Below, in pieces: positions 15,055 through 46,176 of a stretch of 48,884 nucleotides of DNA (its first letter is position 1; each line of letters opens with the position of its first letter). Made by a program: the position numbers and the translations under genes. Below the pieces are notes generated by a model. The model was not told the DNA's origin and did no database searches. It saw nothing but the letters and a program-made list of their open reading frames with translations. The DNA comes from a virus, in the IMG/VR virus record IMGVR_UViG_3300045988_153650, positions 1-48,884 of that record. One strand, 5' to 3'.

Positions 15055-15846
15055 ATGGGTAAGTTTTTAGATTTAACAGGTAAAAGATTTGGATATTTAG
15101 AAGTTTTACATAGAAATGGGGTTGACTCTAATAATGGCAATATTATGTGGAAATGCAAATGTATATGTGGAAACATTAAAACGATGTCAAGTCAATCCCT
15201 TAAAAAATCAAAGACTTGCGGTTGTAAATATGAAGATTTGAGTGGAGTAAAAAGTGGAATATTAACCGCTATAAAGTTTTCCGAGAATAAAAATAGACAA
15301 AACTATTGGCTATGCAAATGTGAATGCGGAAATGAAATAGAAGTCCCAGCCACAAAATTAAGAACTAAAAGAATTTTGAGTTGTGGGTGTAAAAGCGGAA
15401 GGTATTCTCATGGTTTGCGAAACACTAAAATTTATAATATTTGGAATGCTATGAAGCAACGATGTTTAAATGAAAATTTTAAAGATTATCATTCATATGG
15501 AGGAAGAGGTATTTCTGTATGCTATGAGTGGTTAATCTTTGATAATTTTTACAAAGATATGGGAAGCGAATATGTTTCACATATTGAAAAATACGGAGTT
15601 AAAAATACTACTCTTGATAGAATAGATGTTAATGGTAATTATTGTAAAGATAATTGCAGATGGGCAACTGTCGAAGAACAAAGTTTTAATAAGAGGGACA
15701 CTATAAGACTTGAATATGACGGTAAAATTATGACCTTGAAAGAAATATCAATTAAATATAATTTGCCATTAACAACTCTTTATTGTAGATATGAAAAAGG
15801 TCAAAGAGGATATGATTTAATAAGACCTTATAGAACAAAGCTATAA
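15055..15846 (+). CDS. Free-standing HNH-like homing-endonuclease-family protein with tandem zinc-ribbon repeats
   Basis: WKCKCICGN..CGC and WLCKCECGN..CGC repeats, IYNIWNAMKQRC..YGGRGISVCYEW, LDRIDVNGNYCKDNCRWAT; own RBS and flanking gaps. Confidence 0.55.
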   Translation: MGKFLDLTGKRFGYLEVLHRNGVDSNNGNIMWKCKCICGNIKTMSSQSLKKSKTCGCKYEDLSGVKSGILTAIKFSENKNRQNYWLCKCECGNEIEVPATKLRTKRILSCGCKSGRYSHGLRNTKIYNIWNAMKQRCLNENFKDYHSYGGRGISVCYEWLIFDNFYKDMGSEYVSHIEKYGVKNTTLDRIDVNGNYCKDNCRWATVEEQSFNKRDTIRLEYDGKIMTLKEISIKYNLPLTTLYCRYEKGQRGYDLIRPYRTKL

Positions 15847-18000: not shown

Positions 18001-19287
18001 AACTTTTTTGCCCCTAGTTACAGAAATGTAGCATAGAAAATCGAGCAAAATCGGTGAAAGCTAAGTTAAAAATGAATAAACTAACTATATTTATGATATA
18101 ATATAAATATAGGATAGTTGAGGAAGTCATGAGCCTTGACGAAAAGGACATTCCGAAGTCCCTTCCTATTTTTTAATATTCGGAAATAAAACTGTCGGAG
18201 GTTTTTAAAATGAATCATTATGTATATGAAGTAACTAATAATATCAATGGAAGAAAATATATAGGCAAAAGAAGTTGTAAATGTCCTATTGAAAAAGATT
18301 TGTATTTTGGTAGTGGAATAGCTATTAAAGAAGCCTTGAAGAAGTATGGAGTTGAGAATTTTTCTAAAGATATTATAAAGACATTCAACACTAGCGAAGA
18401 AGCTTTTAAATATGAAGAATATTTAATATCTAAATTTGATTGTGTAAATGATGTTAAGTATTACAATATGGCTAGAGGTGGAATTGGTGGTGTTGGAACT
18501 TTAGACGGCAAAACCGAGTTAGAAAAATGGGAAATTTATAACAGAATGAAAAACACTTTAAAAGGCAAAATGGCAGGAGAAAATAATCCTATGTATGGGA
18601 AAAGGGGTAAGGATAACCCTAAATATGGGATTCCATTAACCGAACAACAGAAAGAAAGCATAAGTAAATCACTTAAAGGTAAGCCCTTTACTGAAGCCCA
18701 CAAAGAAAATATTAGAAAATCTAGGATAGGTATGAAATTAAGCGAAGAACATAAAAAGAATATAAGCCTAGGTGGTAAAGGAAGAAAAATAAGTGATAAA
18801 TGCAGAAAAGCATTAAGAGAAGCTAATATTAAATCTATTATTCTTTTAAATGATTTATCTATATATGAATCAATAGTAGATGCTATGAAAATTCATAATA
18901 TTGCTAGACAAAGTATAGGGAAAGTATGTATGGGTAAAAGAAATTATGCAGGAATTATAAATAATGAAAAAGCTATATGGATGTATTTAGAAGATTATAA
19001 TTATTGCATAGAAAATTCCATTGATTTTAATAAATATAAAAAAGAAAAATATTATAAATAAAATATAGTTAGGCACTCTAAGGAGTGTCTTTTTAATATG
19101 CTAATACCGAGGTAACTTTATAGATTGCGAAAGGCTATAAAGTACCGTAGAGCGTACCAGTTGAATAAATATAATACTGGCAAGAGTGTTCGATACCCTA
19201 ACGTATAGTCGAGGGTAAAAATGTACGCCCATCTTATGGGAAACTATAAGGAGTAGTAGGATAAAAAGCCTATGAAATAAGAATATG
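18001..19287 (+). mobile_element. Group I intron carrying a GIY-YIG homing endonuclease ORF
   Basis: Exon ends in U, intron ends in G; GGGU pairs with GCCC 10 nt into the intron (P1); several GC-rich stems at 19090-19270; flanking frames join in phase. Confidence 0.7.
18210..19061 (+). CDS. GIY-YIG homing endonuclease (I-TevI-like, NUMOD3 repeats)
   Basis: YVYEVTNNINGRKYIGK..., repeated GxxNPMYGK / HKENI / HKKNI motifs; GGAGG RBS. Confidence 0.85.
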   Translation: MNHYVYEVTNNINGRKYIGKRSCKCPIEKDLYFGSGIAIKEALKKYGVENFSKDIIKTFNTSEEAFKYEEYLISKFDCVNDVKYYNMARGGIGGVGTLDGKTELEKWEIYNRMKNTLKGKMAGENNPMYGKRGKDNPKYGIPLTEQQKESISKSLKGKPFTEAHKENIRKSRIGMKLSEEHKKNISLGGKGRKISDKCRKALREANIKSIILLNDLSIYESIVDAMKIHNIARQSIGKVCMGKRNYAGIINNEKAIWMYLEDYNYCIENSIDFNKYKKEKYYK

Positions 19288-24280: not shown

Positions 24281-25630
24281 ATGTCGGCAGAATATTTAGG
24301 GCAAGTTGCTAATCTTGTAACTTGTGAAGAATTGATTGAACTTACCAATTTTACTGGTGGATCTTCTAACTCTACAGGCGATATTACTTGGGGTAAAATA
24401 TTAGAAAATGGGAAAATATATCTAGTTTCACAAGCATTACCTAAAAGAAATATAAGTTGGTCTACTTTAAATTCACAAGGTCTTATATTTGGGAAAACTA
24501 TAACTATAGGTAAAGATAAATATATATGTAGGTCTATGACTGGTTTAAATGATGATAATTCATATGGTGGAGAGTGGTCTAGGTGGGTAATTGATTTATT
24601 AATTCCACAAGGAATGAATTTTTCAAATTTAGCAGGAAGGTACAGATTTACACAAGACATACTTGATGAAAAAGCTGTTTTGGTAGGATATTATAATAAT
24701 TCATCTACATATACAACGCTAAATATAAACGATTCATCAACTAATTATAGTTGGAGTCCCGTATTAGAATTATTGCCAAGGTGTGAATTTTCTATTAATA
24801 GTGAGGATTTAGGTAAAATATTTAATCCAGTCTGTATTAAATATGTTGTACTAGGTGATACTCATACACTTATTGAAAAGATAAACGGAACACAAATACG
24901 AACACTAGATAACCAAGTAAGTGGAACAGAATATGTTTTAGATTTAACTTCTCAATGGGATAATATAAAATATGGTAAACATAAAATAGAAATAATAGCA
25001 ATCGACAACAGTAATGGTATTCAATCTACTATAACAATAACATTTGATAAAATAAAAGAAATAACGAAGCCTATCCCAACTACATCAAGTTTAAAAGAGT
25101 TTGTAGACCATATAGAAAATATTGATAGAGATATTAATTATCTTAATATTAAGCTTGCAAATAATTTGAAAGAAAAAGAAATAGAATGCAATGATAGTGA
25201 AAGAATAACAGATTTAATTGATAAAATTGAAAATATAGATTTTGTCAATTTTGATTATGGCTATTCATTTTTAATTGACTCTACTACCTTCTCAACTCCA
25301 TTAAGTACTTCGTACAATTTAAGCAATGCTACTTATTATAAATTTAATATATTTGATATTCTAAGGGATAAAATAAGCACATACACTCTAAGTCTTAAAT
25401 TGGCACATTCGACAGTAAATAGCACCAATTTTACTTTTACGATATGTGATTCTTCACAAAATGTATTGCACGAAATTAGTATACCGACATTTAAATATGA
25501 ATTTTCAATTGATATTGACCTTGATTATATGCCGAGTGATAACAAGCTTGGTTTTTTTATGTACAATGTTAATACATCAACTGGACTTAATACTAATTGT
25601 TCATTAAGTTGTGATATAAAAATTACATAA
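24281..25630 (+). CDS. Putative tail fibre / receptor-binding protein
   Basis: 449 aa after the baseplate genes; Ser/Thr/Asn-rich C-terminal half. Confidence 0.55.
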   Translation: MSAEYLGQVANLVTCEELIELTNFTGGSSNSTGDITWGKILENGKIYLVSQALPKRNISWSTLNSQGLIFGKTITIGKDKYICRSMTGLNDDNSYGGEWSRWVIDLLIPQGMNFSNLAGRYRFTQDILDEKAVLVGYYNNSSTYTTLNINDSSTNYSWSPVLELLPRCEFSINSEDLGKIFNPVCIKYVVLGDTHTLIEKINGTQIRTLDNQVSGTEYVLDLTSQWDNIKYGKHKIEIIAIDNSNGIQSTITITFDKIKEITKPIPTTSSLKEFVDHIENIDRDINYLNIKLANNLKEKEIECNDSERITDLIDKIENIDFVNFDYGYSFLIDSTTFSTPLSTSYNLSNATYYKFNIFDILRDKISTYTLSLKLAHSTVNSTNFTFTICDSSQNVLHEISIPTFKYEFSIDIDLDYMPSDNKLGFFMYNVNTSTGLNTNCSLSCDIKIT

Positions 25631-29838: not shown

Positions 29839-30318
29839 CTATATTGCATTTATATCGTTTAAATGTTGCTCAAAGCTTAAGTGATTAGCATAAACTTCTT
29901 TTATAGCTTCTATTCTTCTGTTAAGTCTTTTAAGTTCTTTTTCTTCTTCTTTTTTGAATATAGCTTGTAATTCACTATTTGTTTCTACTCTTGCATCTTT
30001 AGTTGCTCCAAGTTTTTTATTTGCTTTTCTGTCAGCTATGTATATATATCTATTTATTAAAAAACAATTACTTGAATGTCTGTTATTAACTAATATTTCT
30101 TTTCCGTTCATTATTAAAGTTTTTACTGTTCTTCCTTCTCCCATTTCAACTTTAACATCTGTTCCTCTACTTGTTCTATATTCTATCATTTTATTTTCTC
30201 CTTTTCTTATTAGAGAATGTGCTAATGATAATGCTAATCTGAAAGTTGCTTTATAGCTATCACCTTTTCTTATTATTTTTTTAGTTATTTCATGTGCTTT
30301 CTTCATAACATTTCTCAT
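29839..30318 (-). CDS. Hypothetical protein (159 aa)
   Basis: AGGAGG RBS 8 nt upstream; MKKAHEITKKIIRKGDSYKATFRLALSLAHS N-terminus resembles proteins common on Firmicutes mobile elements. Confidence 0.7.
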   Translation of the reverse strand: MRNVMKKAHEITKKIIRKGDSYKATFRLALSLAHSLIRKGENKMIEYRTSRGTDVKVEMGEGRTVKTLIMNGKEILVNNRHSSNCFLINRYIYIADRKANKKLGATKDARVETNSELQAIFKKEEEKELKRLNRRIEAIKEVYANHLSFEQHLNDINAI

Positions 30319-30407: not shown

Positions 30408-30539
30408 TTATTCTTCTATTACTATTGCAATTATTTCTTTGTTTTGGTCAATTATAACTTTTTTACCTTCTACTAAATGCCATTTCCAATAGTTTGGTAC
30501 TTCTATTATTTTATCATTTTCAAGTAATTTTATTTTCAT
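30408..30539 (-). CDS. Hypothetical protein (43 aa)
   Basis: AAAGGAGAA RBS; first leftward ORF next to the origin region. Confidence 0.45.
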   Translation of the reverse strand: MKIKLLENDKIIEVPNYWKWHLVEGKKVIIDQNKEIIAIVIEE

Positions 30540-30616
30540 ATTTTCTCCTTTGTGGTATGAGTTGCTTAACTCTACTAGGTTCTTGTAAAATTATTCCAAT
30601 TATATTGTATATGAGT

Positions 30617-30643
30617 TTATCCACAATATCCACATAATCCACA
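30617..30643 (+). promoter_or_regulatory. Three head-to-tail DnaA-box-like 9-mers (TTATCCACA, ATATCCACA, TAATCCACA)
   Basis: The first matches the consensus TTATNCACA exactly; the other two have one mismatch each. Confidence 0.7.
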
Positions 30644-30684
30644 AATATTGTTTATAGCTTAAACCGTTGAAAATACTGCACACG

Positions 30685-30790
30685 TTCCGTGGAATTGACG
30701 GTATAAGTGAAAATATAATACCCACACATTCCGTGGAATTGACGGGGTACATTCCGTGGAATTGACGGGGTACATTCCGTGGAATTGAAC
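30685..30790 (+). repeat. Four direct iterons TTCCGTGGAATTGA(C/A) (30685, 30729, 30752, 30775); the last three are phased at exactly 23 bp
   Basis: Read directly; located in the divergent intergenic region. Confidence 0.9.
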
Positions 30791-30799
30791 AAAGATAGA

Positions 30800-30868
30800 T
30801 AAGTTATTATAGTGAAGTTATTATAGATATATATATATATAATAAAAAAATAACTTTTAATAAAAAAC
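30800..30868. other. AT-rich tract with (AT)7 and A-runs (candidate DNA unwinding element)
   Basis: agatatatatatatatataataaaaaaataacttttaataaaaaac. Confidence 0.5.
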
Positions 30869-30869
30869 A

Positions 30870-30898
30870 TTTACATATTTTATTTGATAGTGTATAAT
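30870..30898 (+). promoter_or_regulatory. Promoter TTTACA-17-TATAAT driving the Rep-like ORFs
   Basis: tttaca tattttatttgatagtg tataat. Confidence 0.65.
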
Positions 30899-30928: not shown

Positions 30929-31264
30929 ATGAATATCAATTTTGAAATGGCTATAAGTAATAATATTGATGTAAAAGATATAACTCTTATAAGTTACTTA
31001 TCTTTAATATCAGAAAAAGAAAAATTAGGTGAAGAATTTGAGTTTGCATATAGTAGAATAATAAATGATTTGTCTATAATATTTAACAGTAAAAGTTATG
31101 AAGCTAATTCTGTTAAACTTAGAAGAATGTTAGATAAAGAAGGTATGAAGAAATTTATAACAAGGGAAATCTTAAAAAAGGGTAGAGAATTTGGAACTGT
31201 TGTTTTATTTAAGCTTAATAAATCAAATATAGAGAAACTTAATGTAAAAGGAATAGTAAAGTAA
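30929..31264 (+). CDS. Putative winged-helix DNA-binding protein (111 aa)
   Basis: ATG after AAGGAGG; the track TTG start at 30884 is unlikely. Confidence 0.6.
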   Translation: MNINFEMAISNNIDVKDITLISYLSLISEKEKLGEEFEFAYSRIINDLSIIFNSKSYEANSVKLRRMLDKEGMKKFITREILKKGREFGTVVLFKLNKSNIEKLNVKGIVK

Positions 31265-31281: not shown

Positions 31282-32166
31282 ATGAAATATATACACGGTT
31301 TTTTAAGTAGCAGATTGAAAGAGGAAAAAATAAGCCATGATGAAAGCTTAGTTATAAGATATTTATTAAACTTTATAAATAGTAACAAGATGGAAAAGGT
31401 GCTTGTAAATGGTGAATTTTATTATTGGGTAAAATATGAAAAAGTAGCTACAGATTTAGAAATATTAGGAGTTAAAAAACAAGCTATAAGCGATATGTTA
31501 ATTTATGATTTAGGAGAAAAACCAAGTGATTGGGAAGAAAGGCTTAACTCAATGAAAGAAAGTAGCAGAAAGAAAAAGATGAAATCTAAATTTATAGGAA
31601 TATTTAAAAGATATACTAAAAAAGATGCAGAAGGCACTAAATCTTATTTTGCCCCTACTGAAAAATTATATTCACTTCTTCCAAGCATAACGGAAGATGA
31701 TGAAGATATGAAAAATAAAAAAGCCCCTACTTTGCCACAAGTAGAAGCCGAAGAAATCAAACCTAATAAAAGTATATGCAATTCTGATATAAATAATACT
31801 TCATTTGATGAAAAAAATCAATGTAAAAAAGTAGAAAGTGAAGTAGTGAAAATTATAAATAAAAGTTGTGTAAATATTAGAAAGCAAGATTTAAAAGATT
31901 GTGAAGAAGAATTTACTGATATAGATAAATTAAAAGAAGCTTTAAGTATATGCGAGAAAAATAATTCTCATGGTATTAAATCATTAAGAATGGCTTATAA
32001 GTACGGGAATAGAAATAATGATAATGTGATTAAAAAACAAGGAACTTTATTTATGGCCGATAGTAAAGTTATTGTAGATGGAAAATTAAAAAGTGTATCT
32101 GATATGACAGATGAAGAAATTGAGCAAAAGATTCGAGAAAAATGGGGAAGAAACTTTGTAGGTTAA
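31282..32166 (+). CDS. Putative plasmid-type replication initiator (RepA_N-like N-terminus)
   Basis: ISHDESLVIRYLLNFINSNKMEKVLVNGEFYYWVKYEKVATDLEILGVKKQAISDML resembles the RepA_N pattern; adjacent to the iterons. Confidence 0.5.
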   Translation: MKYIHGFLSSRLKEEKISHDESLVIRYLLNFINSNKMEKVLVNGEFYYWVKYEKVATDLEILGVKKQAISDMLIYDLGEKPSDWEERLNSMKESSRKKKMKSKFIGIFKRYTKKDAEGTKSYFAPTEKLYSLLPSITEDDEDMKNKKAPTLPQVEAEEIKPNKSICNSDINNTSFDEKNQCKKVESEVVKIINKSCVNIRKQDLKDCEEEFTDIDKLKEALSICEKNNSHGIKSLRMAYKYGNRNNDNVIKKQGTLFMADSKVIVDGKLKSVSDMTDEEIEQKIREKWGRNFVG

Positions 32167-33614: not shown

Positions 33615-34760
33615 GTGATAAAAATAAAGGGTTTTACAATAAGATTATATCCAACTAAAGAACAAGAAGAACTAATGCGAAAGCATATAGGTTGTCAGAG
33701 ATATGTTTATAATTGGGCATTAGCTTTAAATAATGAATTATACAAACAAGAAGGTAAAAAGTATAGTGCAACTGAATTAGGAAAAATACTAACTCAATAT
33801 AAAAAAGAGGTAAAATGGCTTAATGAAGTTTCAAATGCTACATTGAAAGAAGCTATTAGAAATTTAGATAAGGCTTATACTAATTTTTATAAGAAAAAAG
33901 CTAAACTACCTAAATTTAAAAGTAAGAAAACACATAATAATACTTTTTATAGTAGATATGACAAAATAAAATTCTATGAAAATGATACTGTAAACTTAGA
34001 AAAAATAGGTAAGGTTGAATGTAAATCAAGTTATGATATAGATTTTACTAATGTAGCTAAATTCTCTAATCCTAATGTTACTTTTAATGGTAGATGTTGG
34101 GTACTTACATTTAGTATAGATATTGAAAATGAGTATATTGAATTAACTGATAAAGTGTTAGGAATAGATTTAGGAATTAAGCAGTTAGCAATAGTTAACG
34201 AGGAAGGTCTAGATATACCTAATATCAATAAAACTAAAAAAGTTATAGATTTAGAAAAGAAATTAAAGAGATTGCAAAGACAATGTTCAAGAAAATATGA
34301 AAATAATAAGATAGGGGGATATTACCAAAAAACTAAGAACATTGCAAAACTTGAATTAAAGATTAAAAAACTTCATAGAAAACTTAAAAATATTAGATTA
34401 AATCATATTCATCAAGCTACTACTAAGATAGTGAAAATCAAACCGTCTATGATAGTAATGGAGGATTTGAAAGTATCTAATATGATGAAAAATAGACATT
34501 TAGCTAAATCAATTCAACAACAAGGTTTTTACACATTCATAGAACAAATGAGATATAAATGTGAATGGAATGGTATTAAATTCGTTCAAGTTCCAACATT
34601 TTATCCTTCAAGTAAAATGTGTAGTTGTTGTGGCAATATCAAAAAAGATTTAAAGCTATCAGATAGAGTTTATAAATGTGATAATTGTAATTCTATATTT
34701 GATAGAGATAAAAATGCTAGTCAAAATTTAGTTAATTATGGGTTAGAAATATCACTTTAA
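33615..34760 (+). CDS. tnpB: TnpB (IS200/IS605-family OrfB, RuvC-like RNA-guided nuclease)
   Basis: FTIRLYPTKEQ N-terminus; RuvC D (GIDLGIK), E (VMEDLKV), D (FDRDKNAS); zinc finger CSCCGN...CDNCNS. Confidence 0.9.
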   Translation: MIKIKGFTIRLYPTKEQEELMRKHIGCQRYVYNWALALNNELYKQEGKKYSATELGKILTQYKKEVKWLNEVSNATLKEAIRNLDKAYTNFYKKKAKLPKFKSKKTHNNTFYSRYDKIKFYENDTVNLEKIGKVECKSSYDIDFTNVAKFSNPNVTFNGRCWVLTFSIDIENEYIELTDKVLGIDLGIKQLAIVNEEGLDIPNINKTKKVIDLEKKLKRLQRQCSRKYENNKIGGYYQKTKNIAKLELKIKKLHRKLKNIRLNHIHQATTKIVKIKPSMIVMEDLKVSNMMKNRHLAKSIQQQGFYTFIEQMRYKCEWNGIKFVQVPTFYPSSKMCSCCGNIKKDLKLSDRVYKCDNCNSIFDRDKNASQNLVNYGLEISL

Positions 34761-34885
34761 AGATATTCTAATTTGGGTATTCGTTACAACCCACACCAAT
34801 AGGTACAAAGTCTATGGAGTGTTATATCAAACGAAAGTAGCTAAGGCGAAATCGGACACTGTGAAGTAGAAAAGAAACGAAAATC
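34700..34885 (+). ncRNA. Candidate TnpB omega RNA (reRNA) scaffold; boundaries approximate
   Basis: Locally GC-richer, stem-rich noncoding tail right after the tnpB stop (gggtattcgttacaacccacaccaataggtac...ggagtgt...gacactgtgaag). Confidence 0.45.
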
Positions 34886-36162: not shown

Positions 36163-36290
36163 TGTGTGTAATAAGCTATAGGATTAATTTTCTATAGCTT
36201 TTTTATTTTTATAAACTTATGTATCATTTTCATAACTTATACATATAATAAAGTAACAAAACGTTATATAAGATATGAGGGGGATTAATT

Positions 36291-36819: not shown

Positions 36820-37986
36820 ATGATAATAAATTTAGGTAAATATTCTTTTTTAAATAATGCAAAAGAAAAAATTATTAATTTGATTTGTGATAAATTTAAT
36901 ATAGCCGACTATCCAAATTTGCATAGTTTTATAGATGTTAAGCAGTTAGATGTTATAAATGTATATGATAATGAAGTTTTGTATAAGTTTAAATTAAGAC
37001 TTAAAAGACATGGAGAAGTTACAATAAATAATTTAGAAGATTATAGAGAAGTAATTGAAAATATAGTTGAAAGACCTATAAATTTTAAGATAGTTGATTA
37101 TAAAAATATATATGTAGAGGTATTATATTCAGAACAAGAAAAAGAACAAGAAAGTATAGGTATTGATAATATAATTAAATATGAATATATGCCTACAGAA
37201 GCTTTTAATGAGTATAAAGTTGATAATACTATAAAATATCAATTCAAAGAAGGAGAAAAGGAAGGACTTAGCTTTTATTTAGGTAAAGATTTAGAAGGTA
37301 ATGACTTTAAGATAGATATGTTGGACGGTAGCTTATTAATAGGTGGCATGACTGGGGCAGGAAAATCTAATATTGTAAATGTATTGATTACAAGCTTAAT
37401 GCTTACTTATACTGAAAAAGAATTAGTTTTCTTAGGTTGTGATATGGCTGAATCTGATGTGTATTATTTCAGAAATCATAAGCATTTTAGAGGAATGTCT
37501 ACTACTTGTGGTAAGTTTTTAGAGCAAGTTGAATGGTTAGAAAAGAAGTTTAAAGAAAGATCAAAAATATTAAATGATGCAGGGTGCAGAAATGTAGTAA
37601 GTTATAATCAAAAGCATGATACAAAAATGAGTTACCTTGTATTTGTAATAGATGAAGTTGTATTATTGACTAGAAATAGTAAATGTAAAGATAAGCTTCA
37701 CGATATAATGTGTGTAGGAAGAAAGTATGGATGTTATTTTATATTATGCTTACAAGATGCTACAAAAGACACCATAGGTAAATGCAAAATGAATTGCCCA
37801 CAAGTTATAGGACTTAGAACTAATGATGAAACTGATAGCAATACTATTATAGGCAAGGGGCATAATTTACAAGATATAAAAGACGTAGGAAGATGTAAAG
37901 TTAAAAATAAAAATGGAGTTACAGAAGTTCAAAGTTATTTTATAGAAGAAGATTTAATAGATAAATTATTAAAAGACTGTAAATAG
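36820..37986 (+). CDS. FtsK/SpoIIIE-family P-loop ATPase (no TM segments)
   Basis: Walker A GGMTGAGKSN, Walker B LVFVIDEV, downstream GLRTND...; about 170-aa unknown N-terminal domain. Confidence 0.75.
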   Translation: MIINLGKYSFLNNAKEKIINLICDKFNIADYPNLHSFIDVKQLDVINVYDNEVLYKFKLRLKRHGEVTINNLEDYREVIENIVERPINFKIVDYKNIYVEVLYSEQEKEQESIGIDNIIKYEYMPTEAFNEYKVDNTIKYQFKEGEKEGLSFYLGKDLEGNDFKIDMLDGSLLIGGMTGAGKSNIVNVLITSLMLTYTEKELVFLGCDMAESDVYYFRNHKHFRGMSTTCGKFLEQVEWLEKKFKERSKILNDAGCRNVVSYNQKHDTKMSYLVFVIDEVVLLTRNSKCKDKLHDIMCVGRKYGCYFILCLQDATKDTIGKCKMNCPQVIGLRTNDETDSNTIIGKGHNLQDIKDVGRCKVKNKNGVTEVQSYFIEEDLIDKLLKDCK

Positions 37987-37996
37987 GAGGCTTAAA

Positions 37997-38392
37997 ATGG
38001 TTTCATATTGCTATAGGTTTAAAGATATTAATAATAACGTAATTTATGTTGGTAAAACTGTAGATATAAACAAAAGAATGGCACAACATTTTGGTGGTAA
38101 AGGTCATCTTGATAAAGATTGTTATAAATCTGTAGCAGTAATAGAGTATCAAAAGTATAAGACTGAAAGTGATGCTTTAATTTATGAAACTTATTATATA
38201 ACAAAATATTCTCCTAAGTATAATAAATTAGGTCAATCAAGAGATAAGCCAACAATTCAGCTAGATGAAAAAGAATGGAAAACTTATCAAGTGCTCAAAA
38301 AGCAAGTTGAAAATAGCACTCCTTACTGGGGCTGCTTAACTTATATATTAATAATTGCTTTAATATATGCAATATTTCAGTTGATAGCTTGA
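37997..38392 (+). CDS. GIY-YIG nuclease-domain protein with a C-terminal transmembrane helix
   Basis: YCYRF...VIYVGKT...R..QH...YETYYITKYSPKYN; C-terminal WGCLTYILIIALIYAIFQLIA. Confidence 0.7.
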   Translation: MVSYCYRFKDINNNVIYVGKTVDINKRMAQHFGGKGHLDKDCYKSVAVIEYQKYKTESDALIYETYYITKYSPKYNKLGQSRDKPTIQLDEKEWKTYQVLKKQVENSTPYWGCLTYILIIALIYAIFQLIA

Positions 38393-38774: not shown

Positions 38775-39803
38775 ATGGATATAAATGAATTAAGATTAAT
38801 GCAGAACTATCCTTTAGAATTAAAAATAATGAAAACTCAACAAAGGATCAGAGAATGGGTGAGCGAGTATGGAACAGACGGAGTATATGTGGCTTTTAGT
38901 GGGGGAAAAGATAGTACAGTATTACTCCATATAGTAAGAAACTTATATCCTAATATAGAAGGAGTGTTTGCTAATACTGGAAATGAATTTCCTGAGATAG
39001 TACAATTTGTAAGAAAGCAAGAAAATATTAAATGGGTAAAGCCTAGAAAATCTTTTGCTAAAGTATTGAAAGAAGAGGGTTACCCTATAATAAGCAAAAA
39101 AACAAGTAGAATGATAAGAGATTGCCAAAACCCTACCGAAAGAAATTCCAAGAGCAGAAAACTTTACCTTTCAGATTATGCACTTGATAAAGATGGGAAT
39201 TTAACTACTATAAAAAATAATAGTTTTAAGATAGCTCATAAACATAGATATTTGATAGATGCACCTTTCAAAATAAGTGAAAAGTGCTGCAATTATTTAA
39301 AAAAATATCCTATGCAAGATTATGAGAAACAAAGTGGTAAAAAGCCTATAATAGGAACTCAAGCAAGCGAGAGCAAAATGAGAGAAAGTGCATATTTGCA
39401 AACTGGGTGTAATAATTTTAAAGGTGGTAAATGTCAACCTTTGGGCTTTTGGACTGAACAAGATGTATTGGAGTATATTTATAAATTTAATTTAGAAATA
39501 GCTTCTGTATATGGTGAAGTTATATTAGAGGATGGAAAATATAGAACTACTGGTGAAACTCGTACTGGATGTGTAGCGTGTGGATATGGATGTAGTATGT
39601 GGCGAAGCGACGAAGATAATAGATATTTAAGACTAGAACAAACTCACCCAAAACTTCATAATCACATAATCAATAATTTAGGATTTAAAGAAGTTTTAGA
39701 TTATATGAATATAAAATACACAAATAAAGAAGATCTAAAAATAGAAAAAGAAAAAGTTGAGCTAGGAAACTTGGAGGTAGAGCAGTTAAAATGGATAATT
39801 TAG
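38775..39803 (+). CDS. PAPS-reductase-family PP-loop protein (IbrA/DndC-like fold)
   Basis: PP-loop VAFSGGKDSTV; C-terminal Cys cluster GCVACGYGC. Confidence 0.85.
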   Translation: MDINELRLMQNYPLELKIMKTQQRIREWVSEYGTDGVYVAFSGGKDSTVLLHIVRNLYPNIEGVFANTGNEFPEIVQFVRKQENIKWVKPRKSFAKVLKEEGYPIISKKTSRMIRDCQNPTERNSKSRKLYLSDYALDKDGNLTTIKNNSFKIAHKHRYLIDAPFKISEKCCNYLKKYPMQDYEKQSGKKPIIGTQASESKMRESAYLQTGCNNFKGGKCQPLGFWTEQDVLEYIYKFNLEIASVYGEVILEDGKYRTTGETRTGCVACGYGCSMWRSDEDNRYLRLEQTHPKLHNHIINNLGFKEVLDYMNIKYTNKEDLKIEKEKVELGNLEVEQLKWII

Positions 39804-43642: not shown

Positions 43643-44374
43643 ATGAGTTATACAATTGTAGATAATGAAATAATTAGAGCAGATTTAAAAGCTACACCGA
43701 AAATAGTCTTAATATCTATATTAAGTTATCATAACAAAGAAAAGGGATACTCTTATCCAAGTCATAGTGATTTGATGCGAGATTGTTGCATAAAAGATAA
43801 GAATACACTTATAAAAGCTATAAAAGAACTAGAAAATTTAGGATATTTAAGAAAAGAAACTATTAAAGGGGTTGGGAATAGGTATTATGTTAAAGGTGTT
43901 GTGAAAAACAATACTACTGAAAAAATAAGTAGTGTGAAAAACCCAACTACACCAGTAGGAAAAACCCAACTGGAGGTGTATGAAAAACCCAACACAATAA
44001 ATACTAAAACAAATACTAAAACAAATATTAATAATAAAAAGAAACAAATATACAAAGATTTATCTTTTATAGATTTAAGCTTAGTAAAAGTAACAGAAGA
44101 AGAGTATACCAAGTTAATTGAGTTAGCGAAAGGTGATAGCGAATTAATACATGATAAAATGCTAAGTTTGGAAGTAGGGATAGCTAACAAGAAAAAAAAG
44201 TATTTAGGATATAAAAATCATTATTTAACATTGAGGCAATGGATAAATAAAGATAACAAAAAAACACCTACTGCAATAGGTGCTGAAAATAAAAATATTA
44301 AAGTTAATCCTAGTATATGCAAACAAGTAAATAAATATACTCAAGAAGTTGAAATTGGGGGTTGGGGTGTATGA
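43643..44374 (+). CDS. Replication initiator / replisome organizer (N-terminal winged helix, DnaD-like C-terminus)
   Basis: LISILSYHNKEKGYSYPSHSDLMRDCCIKDKNTLIKAIKELENLGYL; iterons within the linker; followed by the primase-helicase. Confidence 0.65.
   Translation: MSYTIVDNEIIRADLKATPKIVLISILSYHNKEKGYSYPSHSDLMRDCCIKDKNTLIKAIKELENLGYLRKETIKGVGNRYYVKGVVKNNTTEKISSVKNPTTPVGKTQLEVYEKPNTINTKTNTKTNINNKKKQIYKDLSFIDLSLVKVTEEEYTKLIELAKGDSELIHDKMLSLEVGIANKKKKYLGYKNHYLTLRQWINKDNKKTPTAIGAENKNIKVNPSICKQVNKYTQEVEIGGWGV
43901..43993 (+). repeat. Iterons inside the initiator gene: GTGAAAAACAATACTACT, GTGTGAAAAACCCAACT, GGAAAAACCCAACTGG, TGAAAAACCCAAC
   Basis: Four same-orientation copies; same core as 9907-10022. 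Confidence 0.8.
43996..44030 (+). repeat. AT-rich tandem repeat AAATACTAAAAC x2 next to the iterons
   Basis: Read directly; encodes NTKTNTKTN. Confidence 0.7.
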
Positions 44375-46176
44375 ATTTGAAAAATATAATTGATGATATA
44401 AAAAAATATATAGATGCTGAACAAGTTAAAAATAAAATAGCTACTGATTTAGGATTAAAATTTAAAAATAATAAATGTTTATGTTTTTTACATTCTGAAA
44501 GTAATCCAAGCATGAGTTTTGATGTTAAAAAGAAAAAATTCAAATGTTTTTCATGTGGTCAAAGCTATGACATATTTAATCATTATCAACAATACTATAA
44601 GTTATCATTCCTAGAGGCTGCAAAATCCATTGTAAGAGATTTTAATTTAAATATAGATGTAACTATCAACGAGTCAGATAGAAAACCTAAAAAACCTCCT
44701 ACAAAGCACAAGAGTTATAATGATGCAATATTAAATTATTGCAATAAAAGAAGCATATCAAAAGCTACATTAGATTATGTTGGAGTTAAGGGGAATTTTA
44801 ACAATAAAGATGGAAATAGTGTATGTTTTGAATATAGAAATGAATTAGGAGAACATTTATGTAATAAGTATAGATTTACTTCCAAAAATGCTAATCCTAA
44901 AATGAAATTTGAAGAAGGTACTAATGTAAATACTTTATTCAATATGGATAAGGTGAATATATCAGAGCCTTTATTAATAACAGAAGGTGAATTTGATTGT
45001 TTAAGTGCTATAGAGGCAGGCTTTAAAAATGCAGTATCAATACCAAGTGGAGTAAATTCAACAAATCAATGGATTACAAGTAACTGGACTTTTATTGAAC
45101 AGTTTGAAGAAGTAATTATATGGTTTGATAATGATGAGCCTGGAATAAAAGGTGCTAGAGAAGTGTTTAATAGACTTCCGAATAATTCAGTTAAAATAGT
45201 TAGATGTGAAGTAGCTAATGATATAAATGAATTATTGCACAAGTATGGGAAGTTAGCAGTATTAAAACAAATAGAAAAAGCTTCTACGCCTACACTAGAA
45301 GGTGTTGCAACACTTGATATGATAGAGGACTTTGATGTACATGAAGCAGAAACTCTTAAAACTGGTATAGATTACATTGATGATAAGCTTGTAGGGATGG
45401 TGTTTGGAAGTCTTAATGTTTTAAGTGGTAGAAATGGTAGCGGTAAATCAACTATATTAAATCAAATATATATTGCAGAAGCTATTACTCAAGGCTATAA
45501 AACATTTTTATTTAGTGGCGAGTTAATAGGGGGGAATGTTAAGTACTGGCTACTTCAAACTTTAGCTAATGAAGAACAATTTGCAGAATATACTGCTAAA
45601 GATGGTCATAAATATAAAAAAGTTACAATTCAAGCAAAAGAAAAAATAGTTAATGATATGAAGGATAGGTTTTTCTTATATGATAGTGATGATTATAGAA
45701 TTGAAGCTATAATTGAGAAAATGACTATCTTAGCTAAAAGATATGGAGTAAGAGTATTTGTCATAGATAATCTTATGACTATTGAAAGTAGTTTGAAAGA
45801 TAAATATGAAGCTGAAACTGATATAGTTAAAAAACTAAAAAACTTTGCTAAAAAATATAATGCAATAGTTCATTTAGTTGCACATCCTAGAAAATCGATA
45901 AATGAAACTATAAGCAAAGATGATGTAGCAGGTAGTGCTAATATAACAAATTTAGCCGACTATGTAACTGTAATAGAAAGAAACTTTGATAAAGATAAAG
46001 AGTATGATGCTTCTTTAAATATATTGAAGAACAGACATACAGGCGTAAATGTTGAAATGAAGCTAAAGTTTAGCATTGAAAGAAAGAGATTTTATAGCCC
46101 TAGTTTGAATGAATTAAGCAAAAGATATTTAGATGATTTTGAACAAGTAGAAATTGATGAATGGGAAAATATATAG
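44371..46176 (+). CDS. Bifunctional primase-helicase (zinc finger + TOPRIM + DnaB/RecA-like ATPase)
   Basis: CLCFLHSESNPS...CFSCG zinc finger; TEGEFDCLS TOPRIM; Walker A GRNGSGKST; Walker B VFVIDNL. Confidence 0.85.
   Translation: MNLKNIIDDIKKYIDAEQVKNKIATDLGLKFKNNKCLCFLHSESNPSMSFDVKKKKFKCFSCGQSYDIFNHYQQYYKLSFLEAAKSIVRDFNLNIDVTINESDRKPKKPPTKHKSYNDAILNYCNKRSISKATLDYVGVKGNFNNKDGNSVCFEYRNELGEHLCNKYRFTSKNANPKMKFEEGTNVNTLFNMDKVNISEPLLITEGEFDCLSAIEAGFKNAVSIPSGVNSTNQWITSNWTFIEQFEEVIIWFDNDEPGIKGAREVFNRLPNNSVKIVRCEVANDINELLHKYGKLAVLKQIEKASTPTLEGVATLDMIEDFDVHEAETLKTGIDYIDDKLVGMVFGSLNVLSGRNGSGKSTILNQIYIAEAITQGYKTFLFSGELIGGNVKYWLLQTLANEEQFAEYTAKDGHKYKKVTIQAKEKIVNDMKDRFFLYDSDDYRIEAIIEKMTILAKRYGVRVFVIDNLMTIESSLKDKYEAETDIVKKLKNFAKKYNAIVHLVAHPRKSINETISKDDVAGSANITNLADYVTVIERNFDKDKEYDASLNILKNRHTGVNVEMKLKFSIERKRFYSPSLNELSKRYLDDFEQVEIDEWENI

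Follow-up and report, generated by a model that had tools for sequence, protein, structure and literature searches.

Does a contractile-tailed phage carry the replication origin of a plasmid, and if so, which proteins would act on it and to what end? The question is raised by a 48,884-nucleotide stretch of viral DNA (IMG/VR record IMGVR_UViG_3300045988_153650, positions 1 to 48,884; hereafter the window, meaning the whole stretch), in which a non-coding region at positions 30617-30898 lies upstream of two genes, ORF1 and ORF2. A first, sequence-only reading took this region for a plasmid-type origin, made up of DnaA boxes, iterons, an AT-rich element and an adjacent initiator gene, an anatomy that holds and that the comparative data described below strengthen. 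Judging from this anatomy and from homology, the locus probably functions as an iteron origin assisted by DnaA, with its cognate initiator encoded alongside. From 30617 to 30898, three DnaA boxes arranged head to tail come first and are separated by a conserved spacer from four iterons of 23 bp; a pair of AT-rich 12-mers, an (AT)7/A tract and a promoter close to consensus complete the series. The features of the locus are as follows.

30604-30632, minus strand: leftward promoter-like site TGGATA-17-TACAAT (9/12 positions in a consensus scan), with a putative function
30617-30643, plus strand: three contiguous predicted DnaA boxes, TTATCCACA, ATATCCACA and TAATCCACA
30644-30681, no strand: conserved spacer with GTTGAAAATACTG
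30682-30794, plus strand: four 23-bp iterons, with units at 30682, 30726, 30749 and 30772 (repeat search and conservation)
30795-30869, no strand: AT-rich unwinding element, comprising two copies of AAGTTATTATAG, (AT)7 and A-runs (duplex energy; 10-12% GC)
30870-30898, plus strand: rightward promoter TTTACA-17-TATAAT of the ORF1-ORF2 operon (11/12 positions in a consensus scan)
30929-31264, plus strand: ORF1, a 111-aa winged-helix protein (AF2 model, mean predicted local distance difference test score, pLDDT, of 80)
31282-32166, plus strand: ORF2, a 294-aa putative replication initiator with a winged helix at ~1-135, a disordered linker and a C-domain at ~180-294 (model and homology)

Single DnaA boxes with at most one mismatch are not enriched across the genome (19 found versus 16.6 expected), and a same-strand cluster of three within 40 nt, such as the three contiguous 9-mers that the sequence-only reading had noted at 30617-30643 and that are present there on one strand, was generated in none of 300 Markov-1 simulated genomes. 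That reading had also counted four direct repeats, the last three phased at 23 bp, which were confirmed. Their core, TTCCGTGGAATTGA, occurs exactly four times in 48.9 kb, all at this locus (30685, 30729, 30752 and 30775), and had a mean count of 0.15 in 100 shuffles, none of which reached four. The true unit is 23 bp long, ACATTCCGTGGAATTGACGGGGT, with start-to-start spacings of 44, 23 and 23 bp; iteron replicons have at least three phased direct repeats of about 17-23 bp, and here four 23-bp units were found. Each iteron contains an internal dyad, TTCC-gt-GGAA, together with a shared half, GACGGGGTA. The (AT)7/A-run tract and the TTTACA-17-TATAAT promoter that had been read beyond the repeats are likewise in place: two AAGTTATTATAG repeats (30801-30812 and 30815-30826) stand ahead of (AT)7 and an A-run, and when duplex stability was ranked by nearest-neighbour energy in segments of 40, 60 and 80 bp, the least stable duplex was found at 30819-30858, 30818-30877 and 30819-30898, respectively, each ranking first of ~48,800 positions.

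A comparison with seven relatives revealed how closely this region is held. The boxes are 100% identical in six of the seven, the spacer (30644-30680) is 100% identical in all seven, and the iterons are 92-98% conserved, while the flanking genes and the C-domain of ORF2 are merely 70-96% identical in the same genomes (78-96% for the flanking segments alone). Selection on the non-coding element is therefore no weaker than that on the genes.

More distant relatives possess the same architecture at the same place, assembled from different repeats, which fall into four iteron types (W, TTCCGTGGAATTGAC; H, CATCATATGATAAGAC; T, CCGTAATTTTAC; R, TGTAAAATTTNTTTAC). These are given here with the handles of the loci concerned.

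W type, window clade and L056: three boxes, 3-4 copies of TTCCGTGGAATTGAC, two copies of AAGTTATTATAG, the 111-aa winged-helix ORF1 and an undescribed winged-helix head on ORF2
H type, L009, L024, L058, L060 and L088: 2-3 boxes, 4-5 copies of CATCATATGATAAGACGGGGTAA, 2-3 copies of ATTATTCTATTAAA and an 88-aa HTH_36/DnaD_N protein
T type, L020: two boxes, five repeats of the CCGTAATTTTAC type, two ATTATTCTATTAAA-like repeats and a 53-aa ribbon-helix-helix (RHH)-like protein in the ORF1 slot
R type, L094: two boxes, four copies of TGTAAAATTTNTTTAC, three copies of the 13-mer AACTAGATTAAAA, an 88-aa HTH_36 protein and a RepA_N head on ORF2

All four types combine 2-3 DnaA-box-like 9-mers, of which at least one is an exact TTATCCACA in every case, with 3-5 phased repeats, 2-3 AT-rich tandem repeats and a promoter; the AT-rich tandem repeats of the H, T and R types are 13-17-mers equivalent to, and at the same place as, those of the window. 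The ORF2 heads of the H and T types belong to the same family as that of the W type, to which they are 43-48% and 50-52% identical. Across lineages, the iterons change together with ORF1 and the ORF2 N-domain, and the DnaA boxes stay. One locus, L088, is a mosaic in which a W-type left flank and W-type boxes are joined to H-type iterons, ORF1 and ORF2 head, followed by a W-type ORF2 tail; the iterons therefore move together with the DNA-binding heads, as a single cassette. What marks an iteron origin is an invariant site for a universal host protein beside variable sites that change with the DNA binders of the element itself, with an unwinding element after them.

Every iteron type has an internal dyad (TTCC-gt-GGAA in W, TCAT-ATGA in H, GTAA-tt-TTAC in T and TGTAAA-n5-TTTACA in R), and the constant half GACGGGGTA is common to the W and H types, which suggests binding by a dimer and bipartite recognition. 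By eye, a motif similar to the GTTGAAAATACTG of the spacer, GTTGAAAT(A/T)(G/C)CT, recurs in W, H and R origins, with a weaker form, ATTGCAAATACT, in the T type, and H-type origins keep one R-type iteron copy (ATGTAAAATTTCTTTAC) between the first and later iterons (L088 ~255-280, L009 ~1196-1215). This points to repeated recombination within the origin. In very distant homologues, namely Phg_2220_C proteins in Clostridium prophages and plasmids, no DnaA boxes or iterons were found upstream.

Both ORFs are preceded by strong ribosome-binding sites, and both are predicted winged helices, as had been supposed of the two genes downstream of the promoter; in ORF2 the fold covers residues 1-135, modelled at pLDDT 80-92. 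The accompanying suggestion that ORF2 resembles RepA_N initiators fared less well. As a claim of membership it fails, since the HMM check assigned neither ORF1 nor ORF2 to any family in Pfam, PHROGs or NCBIfam, with no ORF2 match to Rep_3 or to RepA_N (PF06970; none at E 0.1 or better). What stood of the resemblance lies in the C-domain. An exhaustive search recovered 233 representative ORF2 relatives, mostly the same close relatives being returned by a second, profile-based search, and the matches split by domain. The N-domain has 101 relatives, 14 of them with a Phg_2220_C C-terminus and 4 with a DnaD/DnaB_2 one. The C-domain (~135-294) is found elsewhere behind HTH_36 plus DnaD_N heads (P0127 and P0142) or RepA_N heads (P0123, P0128 and P0151, all above the Pfam RepA_N cut-off, P0123 scoring 33 bits against a cut-off of 30). 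Residues 132-294 of ORF2 are 74% identical to the C-domain of P0123 and 58% identical to that of P0128, and in L094, the locus of a sibling phage, the syntenic slot with the same neighbouring genes on either side encodes P0123, a true RepA_N protein.

Structural comparisons and gene neighbourhoods also associate ORF2 with replication. The best viral fold match of its model is a Phg_2220_C protein (E 6e-7), and other top viral matches are proteins named DNA replication protein, replication initiator or replisome organizer. Homologues are found as the first large early gene of the ParA-bearing C. difficile plasmid pCd18_3, between Bet and SSB in phage CDKM9, and in the replication-gene position of C. 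botulinum plasmids; hundreds more are metagenomic, on phage-sized contigs of ~37-54 kb from gut metagenomes that bear the NCBI source label "uncultured Clostridium sp.". Against the PDB, ORF2 matched no Rep structure by sequence or by fold: the fold search yielded winged helices of the generic PadR, MarR or HxlR type and nothing else (all E >0.04), and the sequence profile of the family only weak PadR and Lrp helix-turn-helix matches. The protein has no NTPase motif and, in place of the tandem WH1-WH2 arrangement of Rep_3/RepE/pi/TrfA-type Reps, a single winged helix and an unrelated C-domain. By homology, then, both halves of ORF2 are predicted initiator modules despite their lack of family membership, and sequence searches identify its head as a previously undescribed winged-helix family.

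ORF1 is a distant, head-only paralogue of the ORF2 N-domain (89% probability and E 2e-6 in hhalign against the ORF2-N family), with homologues in this phage clade only; elsewhere its slot is occupied by the 88-aa HTH_36/DnaD_N protein or the 53-aa RHH-like protein listed above. It is a candidate co-initiator or copy-control DNA binder. A minus-strand, terminator-like hairpin followed by a T-run lies at 31722-31749, inside the ORF2 linker region, and could be due to chance or be part of an antisense control element.

Several observations weigh against the locus being an origin with its cognate initiator, beginning with the missing family matches for ORF2. Its C-domain was poorly modelled (pLDDT 30-55), and the idea that this domain is DnaD-like was dropped: a PDB profile search gave only spurious designed-PPR repeats and no solved homologue, and hhalign against the Phg_2220_C-type protein encoded by the window itself returned a probability of 0.1%, leaving the guess unsupported. 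The iterons lie ~80 bp upstream of the -35 hexamer and not over the promoter, so that the classic layout for Rep autoregulation is absent. Finally, the protein that would read the iterons may be either ORF1 or the ORF2 N-domain. In the T-type lineage an unrelated RHH-like protein takes the place of ORF1, yet the ORF2 N-domain of that lineage is 69-72% identical to that of the H type, a value to be set beside the 75-77% identity of the L024 N-domain to other H-type sequences; these identities do not decide between the two candidates.

Taken as an origin, the locus would be of the theta type and iteron-controlled, with ORF1 and ORF2 as its cognate DNA-binding proteins. Dimers of the phage winged-helix protein or proteins would first fill the four dyad-containing 23-bp iterons, ORF2 acting as the initiator and ORF1 as a head-only partner or competitor. 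Host DnaA would then occupy the three adjacent boxes, and the combined complex would melt the AT tract at ~30.80-30.87 kb, the weakest duplex in the genome, after which the ORF2 C-domain, a module also borne by RepA_N- and DnaD_N-headed initiators, would recruit the priming and helicase machinery. The iterons, ORF1 and the ORF2 N-domain would be swapped as a unit, a cassette that sets specificity, while the DnaA boxes and the unwinding element form the fixed scaffold around it. The logic of such an origin is known; what is new is the undescribed family of initiator heads, the pairing of a head-only with a full-length protein, and the exchange of the cassette with RepA_N.

Among characterised systems, the oriV of RK2 comprises DnaA boxes and iterons together with an unwinding element that contains 13-mers (PMC4980987). 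The locus shares with RK2/RP4 oriV and its initiator TrfA the order of a DnaA-box cluster, phased iterons and AT-rich short tandem repeats, as well as an initiator with winged-helix domains for DNA binding. It differs in that its initiator shows no sequence relationship (neither Rep_3 nor TrfA matched) and is encoded next to the origin, that its iterons have an internal dyad, and that it belongs to a tailed-phage genome with a low-GC Firmicute host. With the RepA_N initiators (PF06970, for example pSK41 and pAD1), ORF2 has in common a design of winged-helix head and effector tail, a C-domain ~58-74% identical to those of RepA_N-headed proteins, and a sibling phage with such a protein at the same locus; unlike them, its N-domain does not match PF06970 and it is preceded by a head-only paralogue, ORF1. 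RepA_N plasmids carry their iterons inside the initiator gene, whereas the iterons of the window lie upstream of it. The DnaD-type phage initiators and replisome organizers (Phg_2220_C, PF09524; DnaB_2; lambda O-like) include heads homologous to the ORF2 N-domain and provide its best viral fold matches, but ORF2 lacks a Phg_2220_C/DnaD C-terminus, and those relatives lack upstream boxes and iterons.

The window encodes a DnaD-type initiator of its own, in a second replication module at 43.6-46.2 kb:

43643-44374, plus strand: second initiator, with an N-terminal winged helix and a Phg_2220_C/DnaD-like C-terminus (PHROG matches)
44362-46176, plus strand: phage primase-helicase, with Zn-ribbon DnaG, Toprim and DnaB_C domains (Pfam scan)

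The PHROG matches of the first gene are to replication-initiation and DnaD-like loader families, and its L003 homologue carries PF09524. Unlike ORF2, this gene appears to hold an origin within itself: at 43900-44028, in the inter-domain linker, three 23-bp GAAAAACCCAAC units and a weaker fourth copy are followed by AT-rich 12-mers, a candidate for the usual lambda-O-style phage origin inside an initiator gene. The primase-helicase could be a replisome part usable by either origin. The sequence-only reading had placed a second replicon here, and with an iteron array of its own inside the initiator gene the two-replicon picture holds at the level of sequence. Dependence of the first origin on host DnaA would let the circular genome replicate on host machinery independently of the 43.6-46.2 kb module.

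We put the use of the 30.6-kb origin for plasmid-like carriage, as in a phage-plasmid, somewhat below an even chance; otherwise, it would be the early or primary origin of a non-integrating phage, which is the main rival view of the lifestyle. A specific version of carriage, modelled on P1, in which this locus is the DnaA-dependent maintenance replicon of the prophage state and the 43.6-46.2 kb module the lytic replicon, is correspondingly tentative. It would account for the presence of two separate initiator-plus-iteron modules, and reliance on host DnaA fits a host-coupled maintenance. Phage-plasmids need an initiator and no integrase, and they occur often among Clostridia (PMC7969092). The assembly of the window closes into a circle through a terminal overlap of 119 nt, and the resulting unit measures 48,765 bp (27.6% GC). 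A scan of all ORFs of at least 180 aa, which left several small plus-strand ORFs outside, found no integrase, serine recombinase or protelomerase, as had been claimed from the letters, and no transposase except TnpB. Like P1, with its oriR/RepA maintenance and oriL lytic replicons, the window is a tailed phage without a chromosomal integration module, with an iteron origin and DnaA boxes beside an initiator gene and with a second, separate replication module. The N-domain of ORF2 is also related to the replication protein of clostridial plasmid prophages (the ParA-bearing pCd18_3 and C. botulinum plasmids of 38-55 kb), which are extrachromosomal, similar in size, and have a member of the ORF2-N family as their first large early or replication gene.

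Contigs of the two ORF2 homologues that were looked up are all smaller than ~55 kb, and no host flanks were seen in those look-ups. A further line of evidence comes from an H-type relative with an isolate-type IMG genome entry, IMGVR_UViG_2541047518_000003 (L143-L146, L150), the whole 49,878-bp contig of which was rebuilt. The unit is 48,190 bp long and overlaps itself by 1.3 kb where the contig wraps around, and no host DNA or integrase was found in the whole contig. Its end (48543-49878) repeats positions 353-1687 with 99.8% identity, and its first 359 nt are a chimeric copy, 99.7% identical, of its tail gene at contig 24534-24891; these end repeats indicate an assembly wrapping around a circular or concatemeric genome of 48.19 kb. 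A free, host-free unit of this kind supports non-integrated carriage of this origin family. The structural module of this relative differs from that of the window phage (a scan with the window sheath protein gave no match), and its origin cassette has the opposite orientation, with transcription running towards the lysis genes.

Set against carriage as a plasmid, the same relative lacks both a second initiator and an iteron array close to its primase, and the module at 30.6 kb can therefore be a phage's only origin and need not be specific to maintenance. Partition systems are expected in large phage-plasmids (PMC7969092), but in the scanned ORFs of the window there was no ParA, ParB, ParM or TubZ, only an FtsK/SpoIIIE-like ATPase at 36820-37986, and neither a toxin-antitoxin pair nor a CI-type repressor. 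Transcription of ORF1 and ORF2 appears to continue into further early genes as far as 36.2 kb, the first terminator-like site on the plus strand after the promoter being at 36173-36200. The genome also encodes several homing endonucleases, which are common in virulent phages, and a scan of 185,579 GTDB species genomes found no close relative, only distant prophage homologues. The parallels with known phage-plasmids have limits as well: unlike P1, the window has no ParA/ParB-parS, incA-type control array or recognisable immunity repressor in the scanned ORFs, its iterons lie off the initiator promoter, ORF2 has no homology to P1 RepA, and its plasmid state is putative. The clostridial plasmid prophages are 34-37% identical over the N-domain only and have no DnaA-box/iteron array upstream, and pCd18_3 encodes both ParA and a site-specific recombinase.

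Still more speculatively, a widespread clade of integrase-less gut Clostridium myoviruses might persist as plasmids by means of a DnaA-dependent origin with a fixed scaffold and a swapped cassette of iterons, binder and head, giving incompatibility or immunity-like types, with a head interchangeable with RepA_N and, in the window phage, two origins, one host-coupled and one self-contained. If so, an uncultured and apparently common group of gut Clostridium phages would join the phage-plasmids and show how such phages use host DnaA. The lifestyle matters in practice, as a phage able to persist as a plasmid would be unsuitable for therapy and a vehicle for gene transfer. The analysis also offers a function for a large unannotated family (233 representative clusters, with a head domain that has no Pfam or NCBIfam model), and the four matched iteron/initiator specificity types on one scaffold could be of use in origin recognition, incompatibility and Clostridium vectors.

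It is improbable, in our estimate, that the region is instead a regulatory switch, in which the dyad repeats would be ORF1 operators for divergent early promoters, DnaA would modulate the leftward promoter and ORF2 would act elsewhere. The region does sit between divergent transcription units; the leftward promoter-like site, upstream of a small leftward gene (30423-30539), overlaps DnaA boxes 1 and 2; an internal dyad in every repeat type is typical of dimeric regulators; and the ORF1 slot holds interchangeable small DNA binders, one of them RHH-like. DnaA boxes with a proposed non-replicative role have been described in phage T5 (bioRxiv 10.1101/866236), although a T5-style role in stopping injection was set aside for the window, since its boxes adjoin iterons, an unwinding element and an initiator gene and not a terminal repeat. 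However, the repeats overlap neither promoter, ending ~80 bp before the rightward -35 and starting ~50 bp from the leftward site, and a switch would leave unexplained the conserved AT-rich tandem repeats at the least stable point of the genome, the initiator-type protein that is always adjacent (RepA_N in one lineage) and the RK2-like order of the elements.

A centromere-like partition site, bound by ORF1 in the manner of RHH ParR/ParG or winged-helix TubR, is very unlikely: short direct-repeat arrays do lie upstream of a small RHH or winged-helix gene, and clostridial plasmid prophages use TubR/TubZ, but there is no ParA, ParM or TubZ NTPase in the operon or the scanned ORFs, ORF2 has no NTPase motif, and centromeres are not characterised by DnaA boxes or an unwinding element. 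The switch and the partition site both explain fewer of the features than the iteron origin does.

The remainder of the genome is that of a contractile-tailed phage with a complete structural, packaging and lysis set (terminase, SPP1-type portal, major head protein, sheath, tape measure, baseplate J and amidase). Other recognised genes encode Erf, an ERCC4 nuclease, SSB, the primase-helicase, the FtsK-like ATPase, the homing endonucleases and a TnpB element. A nucleotide search against 50,697 phage records found no relative, only short matches beside homing endonuclease and transposase genes, and the nearest cultured phages by portal protein are only ~35% identical. The FtsK/SpoIIIE-like ATPase is conserved in the whole phage group, including distant relatives, with a PAPS-reductase-like protein nearby (36820-37986 and 38775-39803 in the window).

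To the left of the origin, a leftward block at 27.6-30.5 kb encodes only small unknown proteins and one ankyrin-like protein. The latter is the product of the largest leftward gene by the origin (29839-30318, minus strand; 159 aa), has weak ankyrin-repeat similarity (E 5e-4, to designed ankyrins) and is absent in several relatives. The TnpB gene (IS605 OrfB-type, 33615-34760) is directly followed by a RAGATH-18 RNA match (34811-34872, 70.9 bits), and the whole insert (33615-34872) is missing in the close relatives L003-L006. Homing-type endonucleases are encoded by three free-standing genes, at 15055-15846, 18210-19061 and 37997-38392, of which one is an HNH gene lying among tail genes and the other two are GIY-YIG genes; the sets and positions of such genes differ among relatives. 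The second of them, a SegE-like GIY-YIG gene, is followed by a stretch (19102-19271) that is 82-94% identical to the Staphylococcus phages ROSA, IME1365_01, Rosita and BE28, in which its counterpart lies at or beside HNH endonuclease or dUTPase genes, and which may belong to a mobile intron or homing element common to several genera.

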